A stretch of DNA of 15,264 bases, from contig CAWEXU010000008.1 of assembly GCA_963813075.1 (NCBI GenBank), positions 1 to 15,264 of the forward strand, read 5' to 3'. The notes below the pieces were generated by a model. That model worked only from the letters and a program-made list of their open reading frames with translations, did no database searches and was not told the origin of the DNA. The DNA comes from Methanotrichaceae archaeon (GTDB taxonomy: Archaea > Halobacteriota > Methanosarcinia > Methanotrichales > Methanotrichaceae). Positions 1-15,264 of the stretch are shown piece by piece (position 1 is the stretch's first letter; every line of letters starts with the position of its first letter). Both the position numbers and the translations under genes were made by a program.

Positions 1-756
1 GCCTCTTCGGATTCTGTCTCGGTCTCATTCTGCGATTCATTCTCTGCGGTCAGCTCATCAGTTGATTGTTCATTGGTTACATTTTCGGCTGCCGCAGTGG
101 AGGCATCAGCCGCAGAATCAGTGGCTGAAACTACCGTTCCTGCTGCAACGTCCTCTGGAGGAGTGACAACCTCGCTTGCGGATCCACCGGAGGAGGTGCC
201 GGAGCTGGTAGCTTCTGCTGGGGTTGTTGCAGCGCTATCGGTGCTCGCATCTGCGGCGATAGTATCCTGAGAGATCTGGTCTGGAGTGATGATGTCATTA
301 GATGCTGGAGTGGTGGGCGCTCCCGCTAGACTCCTGCTGAGAGGCACTGCTGGTCTGTTCAGCTGGGGGAGCGTTCTGCGAGCTTGATTCCGGTTGGGCA
401 GGCGCAGAAGAGCTCACCTGTGATGTTGTTACAGTTGCTGCTGCAGGAGCGGTAGCCGCTTGGAGTTGCAGGCGCTGCCGAGGCAGATGACGCCTGGGCT
501 GCGGATTGATCTGATGCAGCAGCACCAGTCGGAGTGCTGCTTTTGGCTTCCCAGGTTTCAACCCGATGTTTCGTTTAGACAGTGTTTCTGCTGAAATCGA
601 CGATTCCTGTGCACTGCTTCCTGAAAGCAGGCTATGGCTTATGCTTGGGGCTGCCCCGCTTGATGATTCAGAGGCTTGCGCCAATACATCTGCTGGCAGA
701 GCTGCAGCTAAAACTATGAGAAGCAGACAAACTCCACCGATCCTGACATAGTCCAT
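1..756 (-). CDS. Secreted/surface Ser/Thr/Ala/Glu-rich low-complexity protein, apparently frameshifted (4 single-base insertions), 3' end beyond window
   Basis: Signal-peptide-like N-terminus (MDYVRIGGVCLLLIVLAAALPADVLAQA). Removing one base from each of the runs at 574-576, 562-564, 460-461 and 315-317 gives a continuous S/T/A/E-rich frame (...LSNETSVETWEAKSSTPTGAAASDQ...SATTPASNDIITPDQ...ENESQNETETESEE) open to position 1. Confidence 0.65.
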
Positions 757-973
757 GGATATCCTCCCGTACCTGATGCTATATGCCTTTTATCCTAATC
801 AGACTTATTTATTGTTATTAGATTTATATTCCAATACATTAATTCAACGAGATCCCAGTCAATACCCTTATTTTGCTGATTTATGTTTTCTCTTTTGATC
901 TAATTACATGGCCTCAGATCTTAATGCCTTTTTTTTGTTATGCCCCTATTAAAGGATGGAAGGACGCTTCACA

Positions 974-981
974 TTTATAAA
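974..981. promoter_or_regulatory. Candidate archaeal TATA box (TTTATAAA, palindromic) in AT-rich divergent intergenic region
   Basis: Matches the TTTAWA consensus in the 757-1139 AT-rich spacer. A second candidate, TTTTATAT, lies near 1071-1078. Confidence 0.3.
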
Positions 982-1139
982 TCTGATTCCGAAAGGGGCA
1001 TATACAGCTTGAATTCATGTGGCAGGCAAGAGTTCAATGCAAGAGATCACATCTTCTCTATCCGTTGCTCTTTTATATCTTCAAGTGCTGGCTGACCAGA
1101 TTGGATATGATAATGATAGATGGATGACAGACAGGAGCG

Positions 1140-2189
1140 ATGATGGGCAAGGAGTTGGCAAAGGATATCAATCTCGGGGATATGCCCACAAAAGCAGCAG
1201 ATGATGCGGCAATCTCTGTAAGAGGCCTCACCAAGAGGTTTGGTGAGACGATCGCTGTAGACAATATAGACCTTCAGATCAGAAAGGGGGAGCTCTTCGG
1301 ACTTCTGGGCGCCAACGGTGCGGGAAAGAGCACCATTATCAAGATGCTGACCACCATGCTCACCCCCACCTCAGGCGAGGCCAGGGTCTGGGGCTACGAC
1401 ATCGTCCGGGAGAGGAACGAGGTGCGATCCTCTATCGGGGTCGTCTTTCAGGATCCTGCATTGGATGGCATGCTCACCGGTAGGGAGAACCTGGACTTTC
1501 ACGGCAGGATGTACGGAATGAACGCTGCCCTCAGAAAGGCCAGAATCGCCGATGTCCTGGAGCTGGTCGACCTGAAGGAGAAGGCAGACACCAAGATGCA
1601 GGACTACTCCGGTGGGATGAAACGCCGGCTGGAGATCGCCCGGGGGCTGATGCACCGCCCTCATGTCCTGTTTCTAGATGAGCCCACCATCGGCCTTGAT
1701 GCCCAAACCAGGCGATACATCTGGGAGTACATCGGCCGCATGAACAAAGAGATGAATGTGACCATGATCCTCACCACTCATTATATGGAGGAGGCGGACT
1801 ATCTGTGCGATCGGGTCGCCATCATGGACAGCGGCAGGATCGTGGCCCTGGACAGGCCGGAGAGCCTTAAGGATACCATCGGTTCGGATACCATAACCCT
1901 GATGACTGATAGCGGCGGGGACGCCCTCGTCCGGTCTTTGCAGTCATTCTCCTGGATCAAGTCCATCAGCTCGGATAATGGAAGCATCAAGCTTCATGTT
2001 GATCATGCTCAGTCCAGAATAGCAGAAGTGGTGCTGGAAGCGAGCAGGAACAATGCGGTCATAACCTCTGTCGGTCTGCACAAACCAACGCTGGAGGATG
2101 TATTCATCAAATACACTGGCAAGAAGATAAAAGAGAACGGCGGCAAAGATCGGGGTGCAGATATCGCTCTCCCCAGAGGCGGCAGATGA
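1140..2189 (+). CDS. ABC exporter ATP-binding subunit (DrrA-like multidrug type)
   Basis: Walker A GANGAGKST, Q-loop VFQD, signature YSGGMKRR, Walker B LFLDEPT, H-loop TTHY, C-terminal PTLEDVF. Confidence 0.95.
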   Translation: MMGKELAKDINLGDMPTKAADDAAISVRGLTKRFGETIAVDNIDLQIRKGELFGLLGANGAGKSTIIKMLTTMLTPTSGEARVWGYDIVRERNEVRSSIGVVFQDPALDGMLTGRENLDFHGRMYGMNAALRKARIADVLELVDLKEKADTKMQDYSGGMKRRLEIARGLMHRPHVLFLDEPTIGLDAQTRRYIWEYIGRMNKEMNVTMILTTHYMEEADYLCDRVAIMDSGRIVALDRPESLKDTIGSDTITLMTDSGGDALVRSLQSFSWIKSISSDNGSIKLHVDHAQSRIAEVVLEASRNNAVITSVGLHKPTLEDVFIKYTGKKIKENGGKDRGADIALPRGGR

Positions 2190-2971
2190 TCGCAGATAAG
2201 GTCAAAGGCGATCTGTACGCCATCTATAGCATCTGGCTTCGGGAGATGCTGCGCTTCTTCCGGCTCAAGAGCCGGCTGTTCGGCTCGGTTGCTTCTCCAT
2301 TCTTCTTCCTGGCATTTCTGGGGATTGGCTTTAACAATATCGGCAGAATTCCTGGAATTCCCGAAGGAGTGAACTACATGAGCTTTCTCACCCCGGGAAT
2401 CATAGGCATGACCCTGCTCTTCTCGGCGACATTTGCCGGCCTATCTGTCCTCTGGGACCGGGAGTTTGGCTTCTTGAAGGAGATAATGGTCTCGCCGGTG
2501 AGCAGGATAGCGATAGTGTTGGGACGCACCGCTGGCGGCCTGACCACTGGCATTCTTCAGGCTTTGATCATAATGCTCTCGGGGATACTGCTGGGCATGG
2601 GCATTCCCAGCATCCAGGGGCTGATTCTATCCCTGGTCTTTATGATTCTCATAGCAACGACGTTCATCGGCCTGGGTCTGGCCTTTGCGTCCAAGATGGA
2701 GGATATGTCCGGATTCAGCCTGATCATGAACTTCCTGATATTCCCGCTCTTCTTCCTCTCCGGAGCGCTCTATCCCTTAGACCAGTTCCCGGAGATTATC
2801 AAGATCCTGGCTTATTTCAATCCCCTCACCTATGGTGTGGATGGACTGAGATACTGCCTGATAGGCATAAGCGCCTTCTCGCCCCTTACTGACTTTGCCG
2901 TTCTGGGGGTATGCTGTGCGGCAATGCTGTTCCTGGGAGCATATCTATTCGAGACCACTGAGGTGAACTGA
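2186..2971 (+). CDS. ABC-2 type permease (DrrB-like)
   Basis: About six hydrophobic segments, DREFGFLKEIMVSP motif, FLSGALYP and NPLTYGVD. ATGA overlap with the ATPase gene. Confidence 0.93.
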   Translation: MIADKVKGDLYAIYSIWLREMLRFFRLKSRLFGSVASPFFFLAFLGIGFNNIGRIPGIPEGVNYMSFLTPGIIGMTLLFSATFAGLSVLWDREFGFLKEIMVSPVSRIAIVLGRTAGGLTTGILQALIIMLSGILLGMGIPSIQGLILSLVFMILIATTFIGLGLAFASKMEDMSGFSLIMNFLIFPLFFLSGALYPLDQFPEIIKILAYFNPLTYGVDGLRYCLIGISAFSPLTDFAVLGVCCAAMLFLGAYLFETTEVN

Positions 2972-2975
2972 TCTG

Positions 2976-3021
2976 GATTAGTCAACCACTGCGTTCTGAA
3001 GGGCGCGGCAGTTGACTAATC
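2976..3021. repeat. Intergenic palindrome/hairpin between convergent genes
   Basis: Perfect 11-bp IR GATTAGTCAAC (2976-2986)/GTTGACTAATC (3011-3021) enclosing an inner GU-rich stem CTGCGTTC-TGAA-GGGCGCGG. Confidence 0.7.
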
Positions 3022-3048
3022 TATGCCGGGCTTGCATCTGTACCCAGC

Positions 3049-3669
3049 TTATGCGCGATAACCGATGTTGATCCGGCCGGCGTTGCTCTCCATGTCCAGA
3101 ACGCTGCTTTTGCTCGCGCTGTTCTGGCTTTCGGATGATGCCTTCGGACTTGTCATAATCTCCTTATATTTTGATATATTCCCCTTCGATCCCTGGGGAA
3201 TGGGATCCTCCCACCAGGCAGATGAGTTAAACTCATTATTGCCGTCCTCCGCAAGATCGGCATGGCCATCGTCCACTAGCATTCTGTTCACTGGAGGCCA
3301 TATCGGACGGTAGCGGGAATCTATGAGATAGATTACGCAGACCATCTGCCCCCATTCATTGCGGCCTAGAGTGCTGTTCTCATCGATATCGATATAAACG
3401 ATCTGATCCTTCAGCAATAGATCAGCCGCTTTTCGGGCCGCCTTTCCCTGCGGGGTCACTGTGGATGGAGCGGCAATATCCGCCAGCCTCACGCTGTCCA
3501 CCCCTGTAGTCCTGGGATCATTGATCACCATCTCTATTCCCAGTGAGTCTGCGCTGATCACGCTCACAATTCGCCCTACTGCTTCATCGGGGACGGCCAG
3601 AGCACCAGGATTAAACGCCTCAAAGATCACTATTATCATGATCGATAAAATTGCCAGCTTCAGATTCAT
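3049..3669 (-). CDS. Secreted thermonuclease (SNase-like) family protein
   Basis: Signal-like N-terminus. Motifs GRIVSVISADSL, VRLADIAAP, RNEWGQMVCVIY and VNRMLVDDGHA parallel the SNase motifs, though they are degenerate. Confidence 0.75.
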   Translation of the reverse strand: MNLKLAILSIMIIVIFEAFNPGALAVPDEAVGRIVSVISADSLGIEMVINDPRTTGVDSVRLADIAAPSTVTPQGKAARKAADLLLKDQIVYIDIDENSTLGRNEWGQMVCVIYLIDSRYRPIWPPVNRMLVDDGHADLAEDGNNEFNSSAWWEDPIPQGSKGNISKYKEIMTSPKASSESQNSASKSSVLDMESNAGRINIGYRA

Positions 3670-3777
3670 AGCAACCTCTGCATGATTTGCGATCTTGCCT
3701 CAACCATACAAGTATAAAGGATAAATCCTCTCCTCGACAGGATAGTATGAACAAGAGGAGTAGCTAGGAGAGATCGG

Positions 3778-4845
3778 ATGACAATCAAGGTGAGCATAGC
3801 GACATTCAACCTCATGAGCCTGGACGACCGGCCAGATAGAAGCCCCAGCCTGGATGAACGCATACCAGTCCTTCGGCCTCAGCTCATCCGATTGGACGCT
3901 GACATTCTCTGCCTGCAAGAGATCTGCGCCCAGCACGAGCGTAACGGGAGGCCTCGCCTGGAGGCTTTGGACCGCCTCTTAGAAGGAACTCCCTATGAGA
4001 GCTTCAATAGGGCCTCAACCGTGGACCGGGATGGAAATTACCTTAGCCATCACAATCTGGTCATCCTCAGCCGTTTCGATATCATGGAGCAGCATCAATA
4101 TCAGCATGAGTATGCCCCCTCGCCGAGCTACAAGAAGGTCACTGCCCTGCCCGAGGAGCTGGAGGCACGGGAGATCTCCTGGGAGAGGCCCATTCTCCAC
4201 GCAAAGGTCAGGCTGCCTAATGGAGCGGTTCTGGATGTGATCAACCTGCACCTCAAATCCCGCCGGCCGACCAACATCCAGGGTCATAAGCTGAGCGAGA
4301 GAACCTGGAAGACGGCATTCGGCTGGGCAGAAGGGGTCTTCATATCCAGCATGAAACGCATTGGCCAGGCTCTTGAGACTCGCATTCTGATAGACAATCT
4401 TTTCGATGACAATCGCTGTGCTCTCATTGCCGTCTGCGGGGATTTCAACGAGGAGTTCGATGAGGTCTCCATAGAGGCTATCCGGGGTGACGTGGAGAAC
4501 ACGGGGAACATGGACCTGGCCATGAGGGTCATGGTGCCAACAGAGAGAAACATTCCCGAGCCCGCACGCTATTCTCTTCTGCATAACGGCAAGGGCAAGA
4601 TGCTGGACCATATTCTGGTATCAAGGACGATGCTCGCCTTCTTCAAGGGCTCTGAGGTGCACAACGAGCTCTTGCATGATGAATCCATAGTCTTTGCTCC
4701 CAAGATCTTCTATCCCGAGTCCGATCATGCCCCGGTGATCGCCCGCTTTGAGCTGCCGGAATCGGATATTAGATGGTCCACCACGACAAGCGTCTTGAGA
4801 AGGGAGAGAGGCAGAGACAAGAGCCATCGATCAAGATACAAGTAA
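3778..4845 (+). CDS. Endonuclease/exonuclease/phosphatase (EEP) family protein
   Basis: ATFNL, DILCLQE, HLKS, GDFN, LDHIL and SDHAP motifs. GGAG upstream of the start. Confidence 0.92.
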   Translation: MTIKVSIATFNLMSLDDRPDRSPSLDERIPVLRPQLIRLDADILCLQEICAQHERNGRPRLEALDRLLEGTPYESFNRASTVDRDGNYLSHHNLVILSRFDIMEQHQYQHEYAPSPSYKKVTALPEELEAREISWERPILHAKVRLPNGAVLDVINLHLKSRRPTNIQGHKLSERTWKTAFGWAEGVFISSMKRIGQALETRILIDNLFDDNRCALIAVCGDFNEEFDEVSIEAIRGDVENTGNMDLAMRVMVPTERNIPEPARYSLLHNGKGKMLDHILVSRTMLAFFKGSEVHNELLHDESIVFAPKIFYPESDHAPVIARFELPESDIRWSTTTSVLRRERGRDKSHRSRYK

Positions 4846-4861
4846 GATTGATAAAAATAAT

Positions 4862-5704
4862 ATGAGCAAAAAGAGCGGCGGGATCCTGCCTTTCAGGTTT
4901 CAGGACAATCATCTTGAGGTCTTGCTCGTCCATCCCGGTGGGCCCTTGTGGGCGGGGAAGGACGAGGGAGCCTGGTCGATATCCAAAGGCCTTTTCGAGG
5001 AGAACGAGAGCCCCCTGGATGCGGCGAAAAGGGAGTTTAAGGAAGAGACGGGCTTTGAGGTTGATGGGGTTTTCATAGAGCTGGGAAGGATAAAGCAGCC
5101 CAGCGGGAAGATCGTTTTTGTCTGGGCGGTGGAAAAGAACCTGGATGAGAGGAGGATTGTGAGCAATAAGTTCATGCTTGAGTGGCCCAGGAGATCGGGG
5201 ATAATGCGGGAGTTTCCCGAGATCGACAGAGCAGACTGGTTTGAAATAGAGTCTGCCCGGAAAAAGATCCTCAAAGGACAGCAGGGTTTCATCGACCGGC
5301 TGCTGCATGCCCTGGATCACCATATGTGCATCATCCCGAAATTGATCAGGATGAGTTCATCTCTCAAGAGCGCTCTTGACCTTCACCACCAGTTCTTCTT
5401 TCACCGCACTCCTGCGGTCTCCCCCGCAGACGATGCCCCGCACGCCGATGATGTCCGGCTGCAGGCGCAAGAGCGTTTCCAGATGAGGAAATCCGATGCT
5501 GCCAGCCAGGGCAACCTCCAGATCATTGCTATGGCCAAGCTCAATGAAATCCGCCAAGTCCTTCTCGCCCATGAAGTCGAATGTCGGCTTTCCATCCTTT
5601 ATGGCGGTGTCCACCATCACCACATCTGCCCCTGCCTCAGAGGCGGCTGCGGGCAGGAGCATGGGAGATATGCTTCCAACACGAAGGTAGTCAGAGTAGC
5701 CTGA
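4862..5704 (+). CDS. NUDIX hydrolase (domain ~aa 1-150) with anomalous C-terminal read-through antisense to mfnB
   Basis: LLVHPGGP..W, Nudix box KG...AAKREFKEETG, FPEIDRADWF. Residues after ~155 look non-homologous. Confidence 0.85.
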   Translation: MSKKSGGILPFRFQDNHLEVLLVHPGGPLWAGKDEGAWSISKGLFEENESPLDAAKREFKEETGFEVDGVFIELGRIKQPSGKIVFVWAVEKNLDERRIVSNKFMLEWPRRSGIMREFPEIDRADWFEIESARKKILKGQQGFIDRLLHALDHHMCIIPKLIRMSSSLKSALDLHHQFFFHRTPAVSPADDAPHADDVRLQAQERFQMRKSDAASQGNLQIIAMAKLNEIRQVLLAHEVECRLSILYGGVHHHHICPCLRGGCGQEHGRYASNTKVVRVA

Positions 5705-6061
5705 AGCCACCACCTTCTTCTTTGGATCGAGGTCTTTTACCGCTCGTACGATGGCTTTGAGCATCTCCTCTGCCTGATCACATGTTTTCACTCCCAATAG
5801 GCCCGCTTTGACGTAATCCGCGCCTGAGGACGCTGCGCCCAAAGCTGCCAGGCTCGCTGTTCCCGGCTTGAACTCCATGTCGCCGATGGTCGCACTTACC
5901 GGCACCTTGCCTCTTGCCAGGTCTGCTACCGAGCGTATGACCCAGGGGAAGTTCGCACCTAGGGATCCCTCTTTGGGGTTCTTCACATCCAAAATATCAG
6001 CGCCGCCCGCCAGTGCAGCATGCGCCTCTTCCATGTTCATGGGGCTGACCAATAATCTCAT
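5357..6061 (-). CDS. mfnB: (5-formylfuran-3-yl)methyl phosphate synthase (4-HFC-P synthase), methanofuran biosynthesis
   Basis: MRLLVSP, GGADILDVKNPKEGSLGANFPWVI, VSATIGD, DYVKAG, MVDTAIKDGK, ALAGS and DIIGVRG, all typical of MfnB/DUF556. Confidence 0.93.
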   Translation of the reverse strand: MRLLVSPMNMEEAHAALAGGADILDVKNPKEGSLGANFPWVIRSVADLARGKVPVSATIGDMEFKPGTASLAALGAASSGADYVKAGLLGVKTCDQAEEMLKAIVRAVKDLDPKKKVVASGYSDYLRVGSISPMLLPAAASEAGADVVMVDTAIKDGKPTFDFMGEKDLADFIELGHSNDLEVALAGSIGFPHLETLLRLQPDIIGVRGIVCGGDRRSAVKEELVVKVKSALER

Positions 6062-6087
6062 ATTCTCTCAATCCCGATTGGGCAAAT

Positions 6088-6777
6088 GTGAAATGCATCT
6101 TCGTCTTCGATATACTTAATGGTGCTGTTGTTCATGCCCTGCGGGGAGAGCGCAGCCGCTATAAGCCTGTTGCTGAATTCAGCCAGGTAATAGAATCCTC
6201 CGACCCCCTGCTGATTATGGATGAGCTTCGGCCGGTTCAGGTATATGTAGCAGACCTGGATATGATCATGGGCCGGGGAAATAATATGGAGCTGATCCAG
6301 GAGATATCCAAGCGGGCAAAGACAATGGCGGACACTGGCGCCTCTAGATCAAGCGATCTGGATCTCCTTCCTCCATCCGTTATCCCGGTTCTGGGGACGG
6401 AGACGGCCTCCATCTCCCTGATAGAGGAGGTCTCAGGCCGAAGGAGGACGATAGCCAGCCTGGATATGTCGAAGCGCAGGGTCCTGTCAAGGGATAAGGC
6501 CATGGCGGATCGTAGCCCTCTGGAGGTTCTGGAGGAGCTGAATCATATCGACCTGGAGGGAGTGATAATCATGGAGCTAGATCGGATAGGGACCTGTGCC
6601 GGTCTGGATGGGGAGTTTTTAGAGAAAGCCAGGGCTCGAAGCCGCCATCCTCTGATCCTGGGGGGTGGGGTAAAGGATGAGATGGATCTGGAGGCTCTGG
6701 AAAAGGTCGGCTTTTCCGGGGCTTTGGTGGCCACGGCGGTTCATAATGGAATGATTCCTCGGAAAAGGATACAGTGA
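6088..6777 (+). CDS. HisA/HisF-related TIM-barrel protein
   Basis: IFVFDILNGAVVHA..GERSRY.P, YVADLD, DRIGT..G, GGGVKD..DL and GALVATAVH. Confidence 0.88.
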   Translation: MKCIFVFDILNGAVVHALRGERSRYKPVAEFSQVIESSDPLLIMDELRPVQVYVADLDMIMGRGNNMELIQEISKRAKTMADTGASRSSDLDLLPPSVIPVLGTETASISLIEEVSGRRRTIASLDMSKRRVLSRDKAMADRSPLEVLEELNHIDLEGVIIMELDRIGTCAGLDGEFLEKARARSRHPLILGGGVKDEMDLEALEKVGFSGALVATAVHNGMIPRKRIQ

Positions 6778-6950
6778 AAGAAGTGACTGCTCCCCGCCCT
6801 AAAGAGCAGGGCTTCCACGGCTTCCTGTGCCGACAGATTGCAATCCCAATCTGAGAATATTTATCGCTGCGTTCCAATCCCGGTCCATCGACAGCCCGCA
6901 CTGAGTGCAGTTATGGACTCTATCGGACAGCGACTTTTCAATGAGAGTAC
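6765..6950 (-). ncRNA. Putative TnpB omega/reRNA of element #1 (boundaries approximate)
   Basis: TnpB reRNAs are known to overlap the tnpB 3' end and right end. The scaffold would end at TCAC (6783), with the guide from the flank TTCTTTCACTGTATCC. Confidence 0.5.
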
Positions 6951-7905
6951 CACACCTGGAACACATCTTAGACGTATTCCTTGGATCTACCAGGACCACC
7001 ACCGAACCGGCACTTGCAGCCTTGTAAGAGGTTAAAGTCACTAGCATGTTCCAAGCTACGTCTGAGATGCTTTTAGCCAGGCAATGATTATGAACCATGC
7101 CTTTGATGTTAAGATCTTCAAAAGCTATTAGACCAAATCTATCTACCAAGTTATGACTAACCTGATGGGCAAACTCATATCGCTTGTTAGCTATCCGCTC
7201 ATGGACTCGCTCAACAACCTTAAGAGCTTTCTTGCGATCTGGAGTTCCTTTAGGAGCCTTAGAGAGTTTCCTTTGGGCTCTAGCTAACTCGTGTTCTTCT
7301 TCTCGGAAGAATCGAGGATTAGCTATCGTCTCACCATTGGAAAAGGTGGCGAAGCTCTCAAGGCCGACATCAATACCTACTACAGCCCCATCTTTCCAGG
7401 GGGGGAGAGGAACATCTTCAGTTTCGACGGAGAAGCATGCAAACCATTTGCCTGTGGCTGTCCTTCTGACGGTCAGCCGTTTGATCTTGCCTTCTATCTG
7501 GCGATGGAGCTTGATCTTGATATCGCCTATCTTGGGAAGACGTACCATGCCGTTAACAAGATTGCCGCCCTTCTCAGGTTGTGGATAAGTAAATGAATCG
7601 TACCAACCCTTCCCTCGGAATCTGGGATATCCGGGTTCTTCTCCCGCCTTAACCCTTCTGAAAAAGGCTTTAAAGGCTAGATCTACCCGCTCCTGAACAT
7701 TCTGAAGGGTCTGAGCATATACGTCTCTCAGTTCGGGTTTATCCTCTTTCCAACCAGGAAGAAGAGCGTTCGTTTCATATTTGGAAACCGATTTGCCTTC
7801 ATTCTCCCAGGCGTTCTTTCTGTATGCTAGAGTCTGGTTGTATGTCCATCGGCACAAGTCCAGCGTTCGCTCCATCTTGGTTATCTGTGACTTCACATGA
7901 AAAAC

Positions 7906-7938
7906 TTAAAAAAACAAGATGCTGCGGTTCAACCGCAT
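7906..7938 (-). terminator. Hairpin + T-tract at end of IS110 recombinase
   Basis: Minus strand TGCGGT-TGA-ACCGCA, then GCATCTTGTTTTTTT. Confidence 0.4.
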
Positions 7939-9182
7939 CCCTCCTTCAAATCTTTCTCCACCAAGTATCCTGCCTGACTGATGATTTTTATCATCTCGTC
8001 GATATCCATCATGCTTATGGGCGAAACAGAGCTGGGTATTTTTGGTTTGGTTTTCTTGACCTCTGGCTCTTGATAATTCTCGTGATTCATAAGCAAATGA
8101 TAGAGAATGCAGAGCACTTTTCTGGCCAGCGCAACGGCTGCAATATTCTTCTTTCCGCACCTTGCCAAGATCCTCTGGAAGAATCTCTTTAACTTTGAAT
8201 TCTTCTTGGTCCTTGATATGGCTTTTGCAACTTCCACCAAGATCCTTCGCATATGCTTAGATCCCGTCTTAGTGATCTTCCCAGTTCGCAGCTTGCCTGC
8301 CGATTGGTAGACCGAAGGCACAATGCCGAAGTACTTTGCCATCTTATCCGCACTCGAAAAGTCCCTGTAATCTCCCATTTCTGCAATAATGGTAGCTGCC
8401 GAAATGAATCCAACGCCTGGCACGGATAAAGCAATTTTCAAATCCTCTTCGAAGGGTTTGACTTTTATGGCGATCTCAGCTTCCAGAATTTTTATCTTCT
8501 TACTGATATCATCTATGACATCAAGATTTGCCTTGATCAAAAATACCTGGACGGGATCTATTCCATTCCTAATGGCTTCTCTGAGTTCGTCCTCCTTTTT
8601 CCGAACCCTCTTCGAAGGTATTCCAGATATGATCTGATCGATCGTCTTTCCTTCCAGAAGCCTATCAATGATATATCTTCCAGATTTGCCAAAAGAGTCG
8701 GATATGACTGAGGAGAGCTTGATGCAGCAGGTCGAAAGTAATTGATGAATCTGGTTCTTGACTTTGGACCTTGCATTGACCAGTGTCTCACGAGCACGAG
8801 TTATGCTTCTTAGATCTCGGTAATCCTTCGGATAGATTCTGGAGGGCGTGATGAGATTATTGAGACAATATATCGCGATTCGTTCCGAGTCGAGTTTATC
8901 GGTTTTCTTGTGCTCAATATTCCGGATCTGATATGCATTGGCCAGGATAAATTCGACATGACCTTCCAGAATGGTGAAGATAGGATACCAAAAACCTCCC
9001 GTGGATTCTACAGCCAGCCTCTGGCATCTGTGGTTTAAAATCCAGGATCTAAATGCCAAGAGGCCATCTTGGTTCATATTAAAACGTTCTTGGAGCTTCA
9101 ATCCACTCCGGGATATCATTGTAGCAATAAGAAAATCCCTGTGGATATCCGCTCCGCAAACTATTTCCTTATCCGAGTCCAT
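7929..9182 (-). CDS. IS110 DEDD recombinase/transposase (~417 aa, start MDSDKEIVCGADIH)
   Basis: DEDD RuvC-like residues GADIH, AVESTG and KTDKLD. SVPGVG motif, Tnp domain GIVPSVYQSAGK with the catalytic Ser, and AVALARK. Confidence 0.95.
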   Translation of the reverse strand: MDSDKEIVCGADIHRDFLIATMISRSGLKLQERFNMNQDGLLAFRSWILNHRCQRLAVESTGGFWYPIFTILEGHVEFILANAYQIRNIEHKKTDKLDSERIAIYCLNNLITPSRIYPKDYRDLRSITRARETLVNARSKVKNQIHQLLSTCCIKLSSVISDSFGKSGRYIIDRLLEGKTIDQIISGIPSKRVRKKEDELREAIRNGIDPVQVFLIKANLDVIDDISKKIKILEAEIAIKVKPFEEDLKIALSVPGVGFISAATIIAEMGDYRDFSSADKMAKYFGIVPSVYQSAGKLRTGKITKTGSKHMRRILVEVAKAISRTKKNSKLKRFFQRILARCGKKNIAAVALARKVLCILYHLLMNHENYQEPEVKKTKPKIPSSVSPISMMDIDEMIKIISQAGYLVEKDLKEGCG

Positions 9183-9189
9183 CGTCTCA

Positions 9190-9345
9190 CTTGCCTGATA
9201 TGGGCAGATGATGATCACTCGTGCGTGCAACTTCACATACGCGTTCAAAGACGCATTTGGGCATCCGCGAGATCATGGTTGTCTTTGTGTCGAGATCAAG
9301 TCTCAGGGCACAGATCAGCCTTCACTGCCCATATCAGCCTTGCCT
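9190..9345 (-). ncRNA. Putative bridge/seek RNA of the IS110 element (boundaries approximate)
   Basis: 13-bp perfect closing IR (9195-9207/9325-9337). Two internal loops, each with a small hairpin (loops CUUGA, CUUUGA) flanked by 7-9 nt segments matching the target site and the element ends. Confidence 0.8.
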
Positions 9346-9463
9346 ATGACTCTATGGGTTTTTCATGCTTTGGGCATGATCCCTGCCTGAGGATCATGGG
9401 CTCTTTGTGGGATAAAGCCTGAACTTGTAAGCCTTAAGCATGTACAGTTCTAAGCCGTTATAG

Positions 9464-9471
9464 TATATTAA
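9464..9471 (-). promoter_or_regulatory. TATA-like box of tnpB #1 (TTAATATA), 22 nt upstream of ATG
   Basis: Spacing fits a leaderless or near-leaderless archaeal transcript. Element #2 has an equivalent GAAAAC-TATAAA 26 nt before its ATG. Confidence 0.5.
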
Positions 9472-9544
9472 GGTTCATAGCGTAGGGCGGGGTACGATTC
9501 ATCTCCGGCCTAAAGACCGGAGCCCTCTCTACCCCTGCGCCCCC

Positions 9545-10063
9545 AGCACTGTAGACACCCTGGTCTCAAGGGTTCTGGAAGGAGCCAGGGAGGCGGGGCT
9601 TGATACCTCCAAGTACTTGCTCAATGAGATGAAGTACTCCGGCTGCCAGGCTTGCGAGTACTGCAAGTCTCATGATCACTGCCGCCTGGATGATGACGTC
9701 ACAAAGCTCTTAGAGGAGATGAAAGAAGCGGATGCCGTGGTCTTCGGCTCGCCGATATACTTCTCCCTGTTCAGCGGACAGTTCAAGCTGATGGAGGACA
9801 GGATGTACTCATTGATCGATGCGGCATTCGTCCCCCGCCTCCGCCCAGGAAAGAAGGCCATCATTGTGACCAGCCAGGCAGATGCGGAAGTTGAGAACTA
9901 TGCCAGAGCAGCGGATGATTTTGCCCTCGCCCTGAAGATGCTCGGATTTGAGGTGGCGGATATTATTCGTATGGTAGATGGCATCACCCCGGATGCCGTC
10001 CTGGCTAAAGGGGAACTGCTGGATATGGCGCGGTCTGCGGGAGCTGCCCTCGGCGGGCGTTAG
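9545..10063 (+). pseudogene. Iron-sulfur flavoprotein / NADPH-dependent FMN reductase, 5'-truncated
   Basis: Frame extends upstream of 9617 as STVDTLVSRVLEGAREAG to 9545. CQACEYC...C motif and GSPIYF present. The N-terminal FMN-binding GSPR loop and start codon are replaced by the IS left end. Confidence 0.8.
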
Positions 10064-10845
10064 AATAGACCCTGCTTAAGGCCGAGACCCTCAGGCCAAC
10101 CAGCCTGACCTTTTTTTTCTTTCTCAAGAATTGATCAACCAGTCGTTTGCCATTGTTCCGGAGAATATCCAGGTCATTGGTGGAAAAAGAGAGGGACCTG
10201 GCGCGAGTGAATGTATCGAAGTGCTCGTATCTGACCTTGACGGTGATGGTCTTGAAGCGAAAACCGCACTCGATCAGCTCACCATGAATCTCTTCTGCCA
10301 GCCCGTCCATCATCTGCAGGATGGGGGCAGCATCTTTTATATCCCTCTCAAATGTCACCTCTCTGCCAATGGATTTGGTCTCATAGTTCACTACAACCTC
10401 GCTGGGGTCGATGCCCTGGGCACGCTCATAGAGCCTCTTTCCGAGGATTCCCAGCTGCTTTACCAGGCGGTCGGGATCAGCTGCTGCCAGCTGGCCGATG
10501 GTCCTGATATCCAGATCAAGCAGTATCTCCTCCGTCCTCGGCCCCACTCCGGGTATCTTCCTGACTCCCAGAGGAGAGAGGAACTCCTTAGCTCCCTTTT
10601 CACTGATGACAGTCAATCCATAGGGCTTTCTGAAGTCTGAGCCGATCTTGGCCAGCATCTTGTTTGGGGCGACTCCGACCGAGCAGCTCAGATCCTCTCT
10701 ATCCAGGACCTCCTGCATTATTGTCCTGGCCAGGTTGGCGGCCTGATCGAGATCCTCCACTCGACCGGAGAGGTCAAGGTAGGCCTCATAAGATGCGCTG
10801 CTAACAACGCCCCGCCCCCTGCCCTCTTTGGGATCAGCGCCAACG
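10005..10845 (-). pseudogene. dinB: DNA polymerase IV (DinB) remnant, downstream part
   Basis: VGADPKEGRGRGVVSSASYEA, SVGVAPNKMLAKIGSDFRKPYG, IPGVG, KSIGREVTF and VRLVGLRVS. Lacks the N-terminus and has an internal deletion. Confidence 0.9.
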
Positions 10846-11010
10846 GTGACTACTCCCACCCCTTAAAAGGGGCAGGCTTCTACGGTTTTGATTCCGACAG
10901 ATTGTAGTCCCAATCTGAGTATATTGATTGCCGCATTCCAATCTCGATCCAAGGATAGCCCGCACTGAGGGCAGCTATGGACGCGATCAGAAAGCGTCTT
11001 TTCAACCAGA
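10828..11010 (-). ncRNA. Putative TnpB omega/reRNA of element #2 (boundaries approximate)
   Basis: Same right-end architecture as element #1. Guide would be CGTTGGCGCTGATCCC from the dinB flank. Confidence 0.5.
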
Positions 11011-12100
11011 ATGCCACACCTGGAACACATCTTAGACGTATTTCTTGGATCTACCAGTACTACCATCGAACCGGCACTTGCAGCCTTGTACGAGGTCAGA
11101 GTCACAAGCATATTCCAAGCCACGTCTGAGATGGATTTTGCTAGGCAATGGTTTTTGAGCATATTTTGAATACTAAGATCTTCAAAGGCAATCAAGCCGA
11201 ACCTGTTAACCAGATATCGACTAACCTTATGGGCAAAATCGTATCGCTTGTTAGCTATCCTTTCATGGACCCGCTCAACCATCCGAAGAGCTTTCTTTTC
11301 TCTCTGGAGTGCCTTTCGGTGCTTTTGAGAGCTTCCTTTGGACTCTGGCGAGTTCCGTTTCCTCTTCTCGGAAGAATCGAGGATTAGCTATCGTCTCACC
11401 ATTGGAAAGAGTCGCAAAGCTTTCCAGACCAACATCTACACCAACGAGAGAACCGTCTTTCCAGGGAGGCCTAAGTTGATCTTCGATCTCCACAGAAAAG
11501 CAGGCAAACCATTTACCTGTCGCAGCTCTCCTTACGGTCAGCCGTTTGATCTTGCCTTCTATGGATCTATGGAGCTTGATCTTGATATTACCAATCTTGG
11601 AAAGATAGAGCTTACCAGCATTGAGCTTGAACCCCTTCTGAGGATAGGTAAAAGAATCGTACCAACCTCTTCCCCGAAATCTTGGATATCCAGGATTCTC
11701 ACCGGCTTTGACTCTTCGGAAGAACGCCTTCAAGGCAAGATCCACCCTTTCCTGGGCATTCTGAAGGGTTTGGGAAAAGACATCGTTAAGTTCAGGCTTC
11801 TCTTCTTTCCAAGTTGGAAGAAGATTGTGCGTCTCGTACTTGGATACGGATTTGCCTTCTTTCTCCCAAGCATCTTTTCGGTATGCTAAGGTCTGATTGT
11901 ATGTCCACCGGCATAGATCTAGGGTCCTCTCCATCTTCGTCCTTTGGGACTTTGTTGGATAGATCCTAAATTTATATGCCTTGAGCATAGATACTTATTA
12001 TGCGGTTGATTGTGTTTATAGTTTTCTGCACAACGGTGGGGCACGATTCATCCCCTCCCCTGAAGGAGAGGGGTCTTCTCTGCCCCTACACCCCGACGTT
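10846..12100 (-). mobile_element. IS200/IS605-family tnpB-only element #2, 1255 bp, inserted in dinB
   Basis: Left end follows TTAT (12104-12101). Right end is GAAG-CCTGCCCCTTTTAAGGGGTGGG-AGTAGTCAC, ending at 10846. Excision restores dinB GRPVI/VGADP with no target duplication. Confidence 0.93.
10863..11988 (-). pseudogene. tnpB: TnpB with a single +1 frameshift (374 aa if corrected); possibly a sequencing error
   Basis: ORFs 11275-11988 and 10863-11282 join as ERKKALRMVERVH if one T is removed from the run at 11296-11299. All RuvC and Zn-finger motifs present. Confidence 0.9.
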
Positions 12101-12114
12101 ATAACCGGCCTTCC
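12101..12114 (-). pseudogene. dinB: Short upstream dinB fragment (GRPV-I)
   Basis: GGA AGG CCG GTT AT joins C GTT GGC GCT across element #2. An in-frame TAG lies immediately upstream. Confidence 0.75.
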
Positions 12115-12142
12115 CTAAAATCTTTTCAATCCGGGTTTTGCA

Positions 12143-12724
12143 TCATTGCGAAGACTGCTCGGAGCCCTCCAGGACATCATCTGCCAGAATCGTCAGCAAG
12201 ACCGTCAAATCCTCCATGGTTAGGATCTGGGCCAGTGCGCGATCAAAGAGCATCGTCGCGTCTGCTGGCAGATCCTCATCCCTCTTCCAAAAAAGGATTC
12301 GGACAATGACGCCGGGAAAGGCCTCCACCTCCACTGCCACATCCGCTCCCTCCACCATCCTGCCGGCAAAATCCTCCAGCAAGATCTTGACCAAGCCCTC
12401 CGGGTCCTGGCTGAATCGCTCTGCAAGCGGCCTGATTGCCCGGCGAGAGAAATTGGAGCAGAAGAGCTTTCCTCCATAGGTCTCTTTGATGGATATCCAT
12501 TCTCCTGCAGGTTCGTACCCCTTTTTCGATCTGCCGATCAGATAATGGAGCAGGAGCACCGATACCATCTCAATAGCCTGGCGGCGACTGGGCAGGAGGA
12601 GAACCTCCCTTTCCGCCTGCTTAATCTCATATCTATCTTGGAACAGTGATATACTATTGCTGGATGGAAGGCCGAGTCTTTCCAGCTCCTCCCAGGCCAT
12701 GCCCAATGCTATATCGTATCCCAT
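12143..12724 (-). CDS. DUF3786-like domain protein
   Basis: LLLHYL..., GEWIS.KE..GG..F...F..RAI.PL and LFW..DEDLPA.ATMLFD...EDL pattern. Start taken at MGYDIAL. Confidence 0.7.
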   Translation of the reverse strand: MGYDIALGMAWEELERLGLPSSNSISLFQDRYEIKQAEREVLLLPSRRQAIEMVSVLLLHYLIGRSKKGYEPAGEWISIKETYGGKLFCSNFSRRAIRPLAERFSQDPEGLVKILLEDFAGRMVEGADVAVEVEAFPGVIVRILFWKRDEDLPADATMLFDRALAQILTMEDLTVLLTILADDVLEGSEQSSQ

Positions 12725-12847
12725 TGATCTTCTCCTCTCTCTGCAAGACAACTCAAAGAAGATTACTGGCGGTCATCATCATCCTTTCGGCTGGTCAGAT
12801 GAAAAAACATAGAAAGGCTTATGCCGTCAAAAGGAGGAGAAGAAAGC

Positions 12848-13915
12848 ATGAATCTTGGGCGGAGGTTCGACATAGGGGCGGGAATTTTCGTCTTTCTGAT
12901 AATCCTTCTCACCCTTTACCTGACCTTAGACTTCCTGACAACCATCCTCTTGAGCGTGGTGCTCGTTTTTCTCCTCAAGCCCCTCTATGCCCTGTTCTTC
13001 AGGCTGACTAAAAAAAAGCAGATATCCTCATTTTTATCCATAATGCTGGTCTTCATCCTTATCCTCTCCCTGATTCTGGGGATCACCAGCGCCCTATTGG
13101 TGGAGCTGTCCTATCTGCAGTCATCAGGAGCCATATCAGATGTGGAGATTGATGAGACCATCAATGAGATCGATGCCTGGTCCAAGAGCTTTATCCCCTC
13201 CTGGCTTTACAACTCCATAATCGAGATCGCCCTGCGCTATGTGCAGGAGATAAGCGACATTCCCATAGCGTTCGCCACCTGGGTATTTCCCATTCTGCAG
13301 CGTGAGCTCACCACCTTTGGCTCCAACCTGCCCATTCTCTTTGCCCATCTGATCGTGGTGGTATTCTTCACCTATTATCTGCTCATAGACGGCAAGGTTT
13401 TTATTGATCAGGCGGTGGATCTGGTCCCCCAGGAAAAGCAGGATATTGTCAGGCGATTTCTGGATGAGCTTTACAGCATCTACCATACTCTCTTTACCGT
13501 GTACTTCTCCACCTCCATGCTCAGCGGTGTGATGGCAGCGATTGGCTTCTCATTGCTAGGCATCCCCTATCCATTTCTGATGGGGGTGGTGGTGGCGGTA
13601 TTCACCCTCTTGCCCCTGCTGGGGCCGCCGTTCGTCTTCATTCCCATAGCAGTCTATTATCTGATCGTGGGAGACCTTTTCCGCTGCCTGATCCTCCTGG
13701 TATTTGGAACGGTGGTGCTGATGGTAATTCCTGAAAACGTTATCCGCCCACACCTGGCCATGATGAGCTCCCGGATACACCCCATACTCACCCTGCTCGC
13801 CTATACCGCACCCATATTTGTCATTGGAATCATCGGGGTGATAGTTGGCCCTACCCTCTACGGCTTCCTCCTCGCCGTCTACCGGTCGATCAATGCTGAA
13901 AGGAAAGGATTATAA
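12848..13915 (+). CDS. AI-2E (PerM-like) family transporter
   Basis: Multi-TM protein with YYLLIDG, LLPLLGP, ENVIRP, IHP and GIIGVIVGP motifs. AGGAGG upstream of ATG 12848. Confidence 0.88.
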   Translation: MNLGRRFDIGAGIFVFLIILLTLYLTLDFLTTILLSVVLVFLLKPLYALFFRLTKKKQISSFLSIMLVFILILSLILGITSALLVELSYLQSSGAISDVEIDETINEIDAWSKSFIPSWLYNSIIEIALRYVQEISDIPIAFATWVFPILQRELTTFGSNLPILFAHLIVVVFFTYYLLIDGKVFIDQAVDLVPQEKQDIVRRFLDELYSIYHTLFTVYFSTSMLSGVMAAIGFSLLGIPYPFLMGVVVAVFTLLPLLGPPFVFIPIAVYYLIVGDLFRCLILLVFGTVVLMVIPENVIRPHLAMMSSRIHPILTLLAYTAPIFVIGIIGVIVGPTLYGFLLAVYRSINAERKGL

Positions 13916-14062
13916 TCCAGGTGGCATCCTGCAATTCAGGGGATACTGCAGGTGAAGAATGAGGGATTTTGCGGTCAATTGGGGCTGAATCCTCCGAGCC
14001 AACAATATTATAATGGCTCTTCGCTGAATTATGTGGATGAGGTCCGGCAGAGAATATAGCCA

Positions 14063-14132
14063 CTGTTCCTTTGCGTCTCTGTGGTTGGGTCAGTGCACCA
14101 CGGTTCACCACAGAAGCACAAAAGACACAGAG
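14063..14132. repeat. Imperfect inverted pair of ~9-nt-periodic CACAGAG-type repeats
   Basis: CTTTGCGTCTCTGTGGT ... ACCACAGAAGCACAAAAGACACAGAG. Confidence 0.5.
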
Positions 14133-14193
14133 AATCTCCAATTCAAGTTTACCCATGCCAAATCGTGAGGATCCATTATAATTGAGAGGTTTA

Positions 14194-15093
14194 ATGGGCG
14201 GGCAGAAAGAGTATCAATTGGCGGTATTGTTCATAATCCTGGATGTTTTATTCTGGGGTTTTTCCTTTATAAGCACCAAGGTGGTCCTGTCACAGATTCC
14301 GCCTGTATCGATAGCATTCTTCAGGCAGATCATCGCTGCATCGACTCTGATAATGCTTGTTCTTTTTACCAGGACCTCATTCAAAATAGGTCGAAGGGAC
14401 ATGGGATATATCGTCCTCGCCAGCTTCTTTGGAATAGTGATGTACTTTTCCCTGGAGAATACCGGGCTTCTGTATACCACGGCATCCAATGCCTCGATGA
14501 TCGTGGCCGCCCTTCCCATATTCACCCTATTTGCCGAAGCTATGCTCTTCCGTCTGAAGGTCACCTGGAAGATGATTCTCTGCTTGATCCTTTCCACCAT
14601 TGGGGTGGCTCTGGTGGTCACAGTCGATGGGAAGGTGGATCTATCATCTGCCAGGTTTTTCGGCAATCTGCTGGTCATGGGAGCGATCATCTGCTGGGTA
14701 TTTTACACCCTGCTGAATAGAAGGCTCTCTGAGAATTACCCCTGCCTGGCTTTAACCGCTGCTCAATCAACAGTCAGCATAATTCTATTTATTCCCCTCA
14801 TCATCCCGGAGATCGAAAGATGGCCCGCGATATCCGAGATCTCTCTGCCGGTATTTGCTAATCTGCTCTTTCTAGGGGTTTTCTGCTCCGGCTTCGCCTA
14901 CATTTTTTATATTTATGCCACCAGAAGGCTGGGAGCAACGGTGGTTTCGGCCTTTTTGAACCTCATTCCAGTGGTGACAGTGGTCTTCGGCTATCTCATC
15001 TTGCACGATACCCTCTCCTGGATGCAGGTCCTTGGAATGGCACTGATAATGATCGCTTTATATCATCTTAACCGGTTGATGAAAAGGACGTAA
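14194..15093 (+). CDS. DMT/EamA family transporter
   Basis: About 10 TM segments in two repeats. WGFSF..TK, AFFR, TTASNAS...AALPI and LGAT.VS.FLNLIPV motifs. GAGGT before ATG 14194. Confidence 0.92.
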   Translation: MGGQKEYQLAVLFIILDVLFWGFSFISTKVVLSQIPPVSIAFFRQIIAASTLIMLVLFTRTSFKIGRRDMGYIVLASFFGIVMYFSLENTGLLYTTASNASMIVAALPIFTLFAEAMLFRLKVTWKMILCLILSTIGVALVVTVDGKVDLSSARFFGNLLVMGAIICWVFYTLLNRRLSENYPCLALTAAQSTVSIILFIPLIIPEIERWPAISEISLPVFANLLFLGVFCSGFAYIFYIYATRRLGATVVSAFLNLIPVVTVVFGYLILHDTLSWMQVLGMALIMIALYHLNRLMKRT

Positions 15094-15264
15094 ATCTTTA
15101 GCTGAAGAGAGGAAATGGCATATAATGCGATTCATGCCATCAAAGCCAGAGGATAACGCAGTTCCTGATTTGGAGGGAAGGGCAAAAATGGCTGGCTCGT
15201 CCAACCTCTCCATCTTAATCATCCCAAGCCACTCGATAGATAAAAGCCAGCTTTGGGCTCCTTC

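Follow-up and report, generated by a model that had tools for sequence, protein, structure and literature searches.

The left end of an archaeal IS110-family insertion sequence (IS) very probably encodes a two-loop bridge RNA, as judged from its sequence and that of its relatives. The element lies on the minus strand, at 7891..9402, of a 15,264-nucleotide (nt) stretch of a Methanotrichaceae archaeon genome (assembly GCA_963813075.1, contig CAWEXU010000008.1, positions 1 to 15,264), which we call the window. It carries an intact recombinase gene, is inserted exactly within a TnpB gene, and has a left end of two-loop anatomy in which all four guide segments covary with their DNA partners across relatives. 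Bridge RNAs are, to our knowledge, the only known guides that specify both recombination partners, and nearly everything known of their rules derives from IS621 and a handful of bacterial relatives. The compact archaeal clade described here offers dozens of natural guide variants that can be read against real junctions. These suggest that guide order is not tied to the position of the RNA gene, and they point to a donor signal, made of a hairpin and an internal site, without a counterpart in the IS621 model; if that site is needed, donor designs for such enzymes would have to include it. The family may also open a route to bridge recombination in methanogens, and a sister element aimed at CRISPR (clustered regularly interspaced short palindromic repeat) repeats bears on the interplay between mobile elements and CRISPR arrays.

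An intact IS110 element within a TnpB gene

The element is an intact IS110-family insertion sequence of 1512 bp, counting one copy of a 3-nt core, AAG. Features here and below are read on the minus strand unless noted otherwise. The core is present at both junctions (9405-9403 and 7893-7891) and again at the end of both 3' guides of the RNA; the right core corresponds to CTT at 7891-7893 on the + strand, and the left copy, at 9405-9403, lies outside the element. The insertion splits the TnpB (IS605 OrfB) gene cleanly after codon 13, with a single AAG. Positions 9441-9403 read MLKAYKFRLYPTK, the 13 codons of the upstream part, and the strand from 7890 onward reads SQITKMERTLDLCRW..., the beginning of the downstream part (6799..7890), which matches HTH_OrfB_IS605 from profile position 20 only. 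Taking out the 1512 bp while keeping one AAG restores an in-frame TnpB N-terminus (OrfB_IS605, Cas12f1-like TNB). Because the flanks join into one in-frame N-terminus, the boundaries of the element are fixed independently of the guides, and the ends are the same in relatives as in the window copy. The insertion falls in the codons of the conserved N-terminal YPTK motif of TnpB, a gene of an IS605-type element, and is co-directional with that gene, so the bridge RNA could be transcribed by read-through from TnpB.

The recombinase gene (7929..9182, with its start codon at 9182) is intact, encodes 417 amino acids and lies between a 220-nt non-coding left end (9183..9402), predicted to encode the RNA, and a 38-nt right end (7891..7928). 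Its product matches DEDD_Tnp_IS110 (4.8e-22) and Transposase_20 (7e-23), both above the curated cut-offs, and residues D12, E59, D95, D98 and S294 align with the catalytic motifs of IS621 and form invariant columns among the relatives. Similarity to IS621 (E value 2.7e-10) resides mainly in residues 244-365 and is otherwise low; similarity to IS5075 covers residues 252-371 only, at 31.7%. These pairwise searches align just the C-terminal domain to the two reference proteins and so do not decide between the IS110 and the IS1111 group.

The left end opens with a hairpin (9375..9398) that begins 4 nt after the core and consists of CATGATCC (9398-9391), an 8-nt loop and GGATCATG (9382-9375); the inverted repeat is present in relatives too, with its letters changed. 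The right end terminates in TTTTTCATGTG and the core AAG and holds, about 17-26 nt before its end, a T-rich, TATA-like stretch, TTTTTTTAAG, that may act as a promoter. Many clades of relatives likewise carry a T-rich, TATA-like box (for example CTTTTAATTG, ATTTTTATGG or CTTTATTAGA) some 18-28 nt before the right terminus; in a circle, a box at that distance would have transcription begin close to where the left end starts.

The host genome carries mcrA, and 44 related loci in species-representative genomes come nearly all from metagenome-assembled genomes (MAGs) of Methanothrix/Methanotrichaceae, Methanoperedens or Methanoregula; a few are on short contigs binned as bacteria. Because of mcrA and the predominance of these genera among its relatives, the host can be taken as a methanogen, as a preliminary description of the window had proposed. 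The same genome holds one further copy of the element, a remnant on C4 with a right end 95% identical, and three copies of a paralogue with 41% protein identity. The remnant (C4:307126-307439, locus L002) is 314 nt long and 95% identical to the window element; its right end, ..CATGTGGAG, is followed by GCACAGAG, which fits the loop-1 5' guide described below at 6/7 letters.

Conserved structure of the predicted bridge RNA

The core of the predicted bridge RNA spans 143 nt (9195..9337), from the 5' to the 3' strand of a perfect 13-bp closing stem in which CTGATATGGGCAG (9337-9325) pairs with CTGCCCATATCAG (9207-9195); the 3' strand of this stem ends 12 nt before the recombinase ATG. The stem encloses two loops. 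The putative target-binding loop (loop 1, 9277..9320) comprises a basal stem of GGCTG (9320-9316) with CAACC (9281-9277), a 5' guide (9315-9305, including ATCTGTG at 9315-9309), a hairpin, GAGA/CTTGA/TCTC (9304-9292), and a 3' guide, CACAAAG (9289-9283), followed by an A (9282) that matches the first left-end letter. The putative donor-binding loop (loop 2, 9211..9276) has the same plan: a basal stem of ATGATCTCG (9276-9268) with CGAG (9221-9218) and ATCAT (9215-9211), a 5' guide, ATGCCCAAA (9264-9256), a hairpin, GCGT/CTTTGA/ACGC (9254-9241), and a 3' guide, ATGTGAAG (9238-9231).

This architecture recurs among relatives. A closing-stem pattern search of metagenome contigs returned at least 121 stretches, and a structural regular expression run over all loci and the genome gave 82 matches with 68 distinct sequences; one match, L138, arose by chance and was dropped. 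We aligned 66 distinct sequences, mostly from Methanothrix-like archaea, with MAFFT. RNAalifold recovers the closing stem and both hairpins from this alignment, and neither basal stem; the loop-1 basal stem was added by hand, and the loop-2 basal stem, which is misaligned between clades, was left out. Over the 25 pairs of the four helices, 93.5% of cells in the 66 sequences are paired, as against 27-45% when the 3' partners are slid, and 24 cells have changed on both sides, as against 4.1 in shuffles (0/500 as high). At one loop-1 basal-stem pair (columns 21/64), for example, UA occurs 46 times, CG 10 times and AU once. The stems also tolerate G-U pairs, with GU counted 38 times at one basal-stem pair and 7 and 3 times in the hairpin, and the loop letters vary while the stems stay conserved. 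A covariance model built on the family matches the window at 9337-9195 with 123.9 bits, a score to be read with the window sequence being in the training set; it also finds L018, which lay outside the training set and was missed by the structural expression, at 83 bits. A tRNA search of the window found none. At E values up to 10, the only Rfam entry in 9100-9480 was SNORA48, on the + strand and at 17.7 bits against a cut-off of 50, which we regard as chance.

Most of this anatomy had been noticed in the preliminary description. The perfect 13-bp stem closing two modules, and the segments and hairpins of both modules, can be read directly at the minus-strand positions it gave, and both 3' guides do end in the AAG core. 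Its assignment to an IS110 system with a bridge RNA from the long non-coding end agrees with the two Pfam domains, the catalytic residues, the RNA in the long 5' end and the two-loop layout. It had also proposed folding the left end, with a mixed outcome: the family covariance model and the 93.5% pairing speak for the structure, and the single-sequence fold gives it only modest backing.

Target guides covary with the flanking DNA

In the window, the two guides of loop 1 match the two halves of the empty target on opposite strands, as had been described: on the + strand, ATCTGTG lies at 7883-7889 and CTTTGTG at 9403-9409. The last seven letters of the left target half with its core, CCCACAAAG (9403..9411), are those of the loop-1 3' guide, and the last seven letters of the right target half (7883..7890; a T, then CACAGAT) are complementary to the loop-1 5' guide; on the sense strand this match spans +2 to +8 of the right flank.

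The preliminary description had suggested checking whether loop segments covary with flanks in homologues, and they do, for all four segments. We located the start of each left end by the inverted repeat next to an internal site, X (described below), and each right end by a T-rich CAT motif, leaving the target guides unused. This yielded 74 insertion records, of which those without a determinable end were left out of the test requiring that end; L010, L105, L113 and L118, with a mis-set left boundary or a truncated end, were retained and scored lowest. One representative per distinct guide was compared with its own DNA and with 5000 shuffled pairings. No shuffle reached the observed mean for any segment, although shuffles keep column make-up and not relatedness, so that these figures are not probabilities. 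The loop-1 3' guide has the same letters as its left flank and core at 6.38/9 positions, against 4.02 when shuffled (n=34), and the loop-1 5' guide is complementary to its core and right flank at 6.04/9, against 4.64 (n=27). When the 5' guide was compared in complement mode with 70 nt of right flank, its best match began at core position 0-2 in 15/26 cases; in identity mode the same flank gave no signal (98/300 shuffles as good) and no distal site resembling X.

Individual lineages show guides and flanks changing together. In locus L009, whose protein is 96% identical, CGCAAAG and ATCTGCG take the place of the window's CACAAAG and ATCTGTG, and the left flank has changed with them, ending in ..CCGCAAAG. 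The 3' guides of L013 and L025 differ (CAAACAAAC versus TAACCAAAC), each with a flank changed to match. L015 and L016 have a common 3' guide and different 5' guides: CCTTAA.. in the former, which fits its right flank TTACCC.., and CGAGAA.. in the latter, which fits TGCTCG... In the window clade, all four known right flanks (window, L006, L010 and the C4 remnant) read CACAGA at +2 to +7. The core itself is AAG in the window and AAA in 21/28 relatives. The letter after the core in the 3' segment equals the first letter of the element in 24/28 junctions and the first letter of the right flank in 8/28; it is an invariant C in most, and only the window clade differs, with A in both RNA and element. 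Both guides of the target loop, then, appear to include the core and to read the two target halves on opposite strands, with their 5' and 3' positions exchanged relative to IS621.

The donor loop and an internal site

Loop 2 is predicted to read the element itself. Its 3' guide matches the right terminus (CTTCACAT on the + strand at 7891-7898), as the preliminary description had seen, and across relatives it has the same letters as the right end and core at 7.6/8 positions, against 5.79 when shuffled (n=10). In three relatives, L013, L025 and L096, this guide carries two extra letters (ATA-TT-GGAAAA versus ..CATAGGAAAA).

The 5' segment of this module had been left without a partner. Its match is an internal left-end site rather than the left terminus: site X, ATGCCCAAA (9369..9377), is identical to the loop-2 5' guide and lies about 20-26 nt inside the left end, behind the hairpin, whose 3' half it overlaps by 3 nt. 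X is the only exact second copy of this guide in the window element. Among relatives, guide and X agree at 8.25/9 positions, against 5.26 when shuffled (n=20), and their identity covaries in 20-24 distinct guide classes. When 53 distinct pairs of guide and left end were compared, the sole diagonal was identity of guide positions 0-8 with X (z up to 9.9), and the best identity match lay 22-33 nt from the core in 22/24 guide classes. The letters of X differ by clade (ATGCCCAAA, ATACGGGAC, ATGCATGAA, ATACATGGA, AAGTACACA, GCACCCGAA and others) and the surrounding sequences are unrelated. As these nine letters alone are common to both places, in unrelated flanks and with letters that vary by clade, X and the loop-2 5' guide look like a guide-site pair and not a duplication. 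Partners complementary to X or to the guide were found at no conserved place in 21 elements (both strands, at most 2 mismatches), and the only partner that seems available to this guide is the antisense strand at X. A hairpin, a cruciform or a bent donor could bring X near the core.

Comparison with IS621 and IS1111 elements

Bridge RNAs and seekRNAs were described in 2024. The best studied system is IS621 of the IS110 group, with its bridge RNA and recombinase (Durrant 2024, PMC11208160; Hiraizumi 2024, PMC11208158; PDB 8wt6). The element described here resembles it in having a recombinase with DEDD and Tnp domains, a long left end that precedes the gene and is predicted to encode the RNA, a target loop followed by a donor loop, each with a stem at its base and a hairpin flanked by a guide on either side, and a core included in both target guides. 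The 3' guide is also followed by a letter that fits the other DNA, as in the handshake guide of IS621, and the 2-nt bulge in the donor 3' guide of L013, L025 and L096 recalls the IS621 right-donor guide, which has two flipped-out uridines and pairs discontinuously. There are also differences. The recombinase is no more than a distant relative, a 3-nt core stands in place of the CT dinucleotide, the guide with left-flank or right-end sequence is on the 3' rather than the 5' side, the other donor guide has its match within the left end and not at the left terminus, and a closing stem joins the two loops. In an archaeal host, moreover, a junction promoter, if present, would be of the TATA type.

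The guide order flipped relative to IS621, which the preliminary description had proposed, holds against the published text and equals the order reported for IS1111 seekRNAs. In those of ISEc11, ISPa11, ISKpn4 and ISPst6 the complement of the top strand comes first, and in the IS110-type ISEc21 the order is the reverse (Siddiquee 2024, PMC11187229). Here, as in IS1111 seekRNAs, the segment complementary to the top strand is 5' of the segment complementary to the bottom strand. Unlike IS1111 elements, in which the non-coding region and RNA are downstream of the gene, this family has them upstream (left end 220 nt, right end 38 nt). Subterminal inverted repeats are 7-17 bp long in IS1111 elements; those seen here are short and centred on CATG, with 5/6 bp for the copy in the window and 6-7 bp for the paralogue. 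ISEc21 likewise has an upstream non-coding region and a short guide RNA, but its bottom-strand match is 5' of its top-strand match. On sequence, the family appears to combine IS1111 guide order with an upstream RNA.

Structures that depart from IS621 while covarying with target and donor have been surveyed before (Durrant 2024, Fig. 6), most broadly with 86 covariance models and 32,190 bridge RNAs, many unlike IS621 (bioRxiv 10.64898/2026.10.21.760802), and the present family is like those variants; 662 archaeal IS110 recombinases have also been catalogued (bioRxiv 10.1101/2024.06.21.599552). Literature searches on IS110 elements with archaea, bridge RNA and CRISPR repeats turned up no paper on a methanogen bridge RNA or on this layout; the family or its layout may be among the 86 models of that survey.

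The swapped layout seems not to be confined to archaea, because two bacterial relatives at 33-38% identity, from B. thuringiensis (L170) and Alicyclobacillus dauci (L171), show by eye a loop-1 3' segment equal to the left flank; their right ends could not be placed. The covariance model gave a marginal match on L170 (9.5 bits, E value 0.4), at the place chosen by eye, and no match in L171.

Proposed mechanism and polarity

In the mechanism that we favour, the RNA would be made and bound by the recombinase, and the chemistry would follow IS621. The choice of insertion site would fall to loop 1, in which the 3' guide, matching the left flank and the AAG core letter for letter, would pair with the antisense strand, one further letter matching the first letter of the element, and the 5' guide would pair with the sense strand of the right flank. 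Loop 2 would recognise the element, through a 3' guide equal to the right end with the core and a 5' guide equal to site X behind the hairpin, X being read on the antisense strand. The donor would be an excised circle with a junction promoter, and the recombinase would bring the joined ends of this circle and the target into synapsis, strand exchange taking place at the core, as shown for IS621.

The guide positions are exchanged relative to IS621, yet the 3' segments keep the traits of IS621 3' guides (the extra letter and the 2-nt bulge), and for this reason the RNA-plus-gene unit seems inverted. The simplest reading is that recombination has the geometry of IS621, with this unit inverted relative to the recombination polarity as in IS1111 and the RNA kept upstream. 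A more far-reaching proposal, which we put forward tentatively and would not yet bet on, is that the family has a third configuration of the IS110 superfamily: IS1111 polarity, an upstream RNA, and two donor guides that both read the antisense strand, one at the right end and core and the other at an internal left-end site, with X brought to the crossover by the hairpin or a cruciform or by donor bending, as a bent donor has been seen in the published IS621 work. If so, donor recognition would depend on DNA structure as well as on pairing, and the first ~46 nt of the left end (hairpin and X) together with the right end would be a minimal mobilisable unit, as suggested by contigs in RNA libraries that resemble miniature inverted-repeat transposable elements (MITEs).

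It is unlikely, by contrast, that the element follows the ordinary IS621 design, with the polarity and the reading of X artefactual, the true right-donor guide pairing discontinuously with the start of the left end, and X a by-product of the left-end hairpin or of gene conversion. Such a design would accord with the discontinuous pairing of the IS621 right-donor guide itself, with the 3-nt overlap of X and the hairpin, and with a weak excess of complementarity between the loop-2 5' region and the first left-end letters (5.96 versus 5.67, reached by 1/300 shuffles; 5/24 best matches at positions 2-5). However, the swapped order comes from the two strongest signals, both 3' guides reading as the sense strand left of the core, while the published IS621 text gives the opposite order, and X and its guide have nine letters alone in common, in differing flanks and with letters that vary by clade.

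Traces in RNA libraries and points against a bridge RNA

Part of the window is present in 14 runs recorded as RNA, and four of these, from four studies, were compared with it. Each of the four metatranscriptome runs yields contigs across 9094-9410 that are 95-99% identical to the window. A 273-nt contig over 9140-9410 (8 differences) in a bioreactor run has a word depth of 2212, against 167 for a 1215-nt gene contig, and in two peat runs the left end is deeper than the gene; such depths are a hint only. One low-depth contig joins 9400 to 7929 and is possibly the end-to-end junction of a variant.

Could the left-end segments act as DNA? Guide sequences of IS200/IS605 elements pair as single-stranded DNA. 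By analogy, the left-end sequences here might pair with target or ends in single-stranded DNA, the stems being DNA hairpins bound by the recombinase. Every match would hold just as well for DNA, and three segments out of four, including the loop-2 5' guide, are sense-strand sequence and would pair with one strand, the antisense. We nonetheless consider this very improbable: the enzyme is a DEDD IS110 recombinase, from a family in which biochemistry and structures have shown RNA guidance, the two-loop layout, extra non-cognate letter and 2-nt bulge mirror the IS621 RNA, contigs in RNA libraries cover the left end, and the G-U pairs tolerated in the stems fit RNA better than DNA. Less probable still is a mere 5' leader controlling translation or stability of the recombinase mRNA, with flank matches due to protein site preference and chance, for although the structure lies directly upstream of the start codon and its single-sequence fold is only modestly significant, the loop letters change together with the flanks in lineage after lineage (L009, L013/L025, L015/L016) and vary while the stems are kept.

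Several observations do weigh against a bridge RNA as we describe it. The single-sequence fold only modestly beats shuffles (z -2.6 and -2.8, with 1/200 shuffles each) and pairs the two loop-1 guides with each other, and Rfam, applied at gathering cut-offs to the whole window, gave 0 matches. In the window, the loop-1 5' guide pairs poorly with the core, having CCC in place of the expected CTT, and its pairing requires a bulge at target base +1. On the donor side, position 6 is recurrently mismatched between guide and X, as seen in three clades, and clear complementarity to the left-end start, which the IS621 model requires, is lacking in the loop-2 5' guide. As for the RNA libraries, part of the high depth in the bioreactor run stems from relatives, the left end has less depth than the gene body in one of the three peat runs, X3, contigs give no strand, ends or level, and DNA may occur in RNA libraries. 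Finally, the host genome has one intact copy and one remnant of the element, which leaves recent activity unsupported.

The MITE-like contigs come from runs X1, X2 and X8. They follow the left end through its initial ~46 nt (hairpin, X and GCATGAAA), depart from the window at 9357, and continue for ~29 nt with right-end-like sequence (..TTTTTCATGTGGAG), which suggests a MITE-like miniature derivative. No such derivative, joining the start of the left end to the right end, was found in the host's own genome, and a scan of the fetched loci gave one regular-expression match, which was spurious.

A paralogue in CRISPR repeats and other junctions

The paralogous IS110 element, with 41% protein identity, is inserted in CRISPR repeats at its three places in the same genome (C7:~600-2000, C7:~108400-109900 and C10:~94950-96500; L003, L004 and L005), and CRISPR-repeat insertions also occur in L026, L028-L030, L063, L071, L111 and L158. 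Such insertions always follow ..ATTGAAA, one base before the end of the repeat, and are oriented with it; the loop-1 3' guide of the paralogue is GATTGAAAC. Relatives insert likewise in arrays with at least three different repeats that have the ..ATTGAAA ending in common. Transcription of the array and processing of its repeats could supply the RNA of the paralogue.

Elements of this kind also meet one another. L028 and L029 are on one contig, and at L028 ~2560-2700 a right end abuts the remainder of the other copy's bridge RNA, which resumes just after its loop-1 3' guide. Because the right end directly adjoins the rest of the sibling bridge RNA, one copy has evidently inserted into its sibling's guide, whose letters are those of the target. 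Further, the left flanks of L012, L023 and L098 and of L057, L081, L083, L104 and L107 show clades at ..TTTTCATGGGACA or ..TTTTCATATCACA. These sequences resemble the right ends of sibling IS110 elements, and the right end of L075 indeed adjoins such an element; at these junctions the DNA has ACA where the guide has AAA. Lastly, the 2064-nt contig of L105 carries, upstream of a full copy, a junction of right end, core and left end, ..TTTTCATGGCA AAG CATCGATGA.., which is either a tandem pair or an assembled circle.
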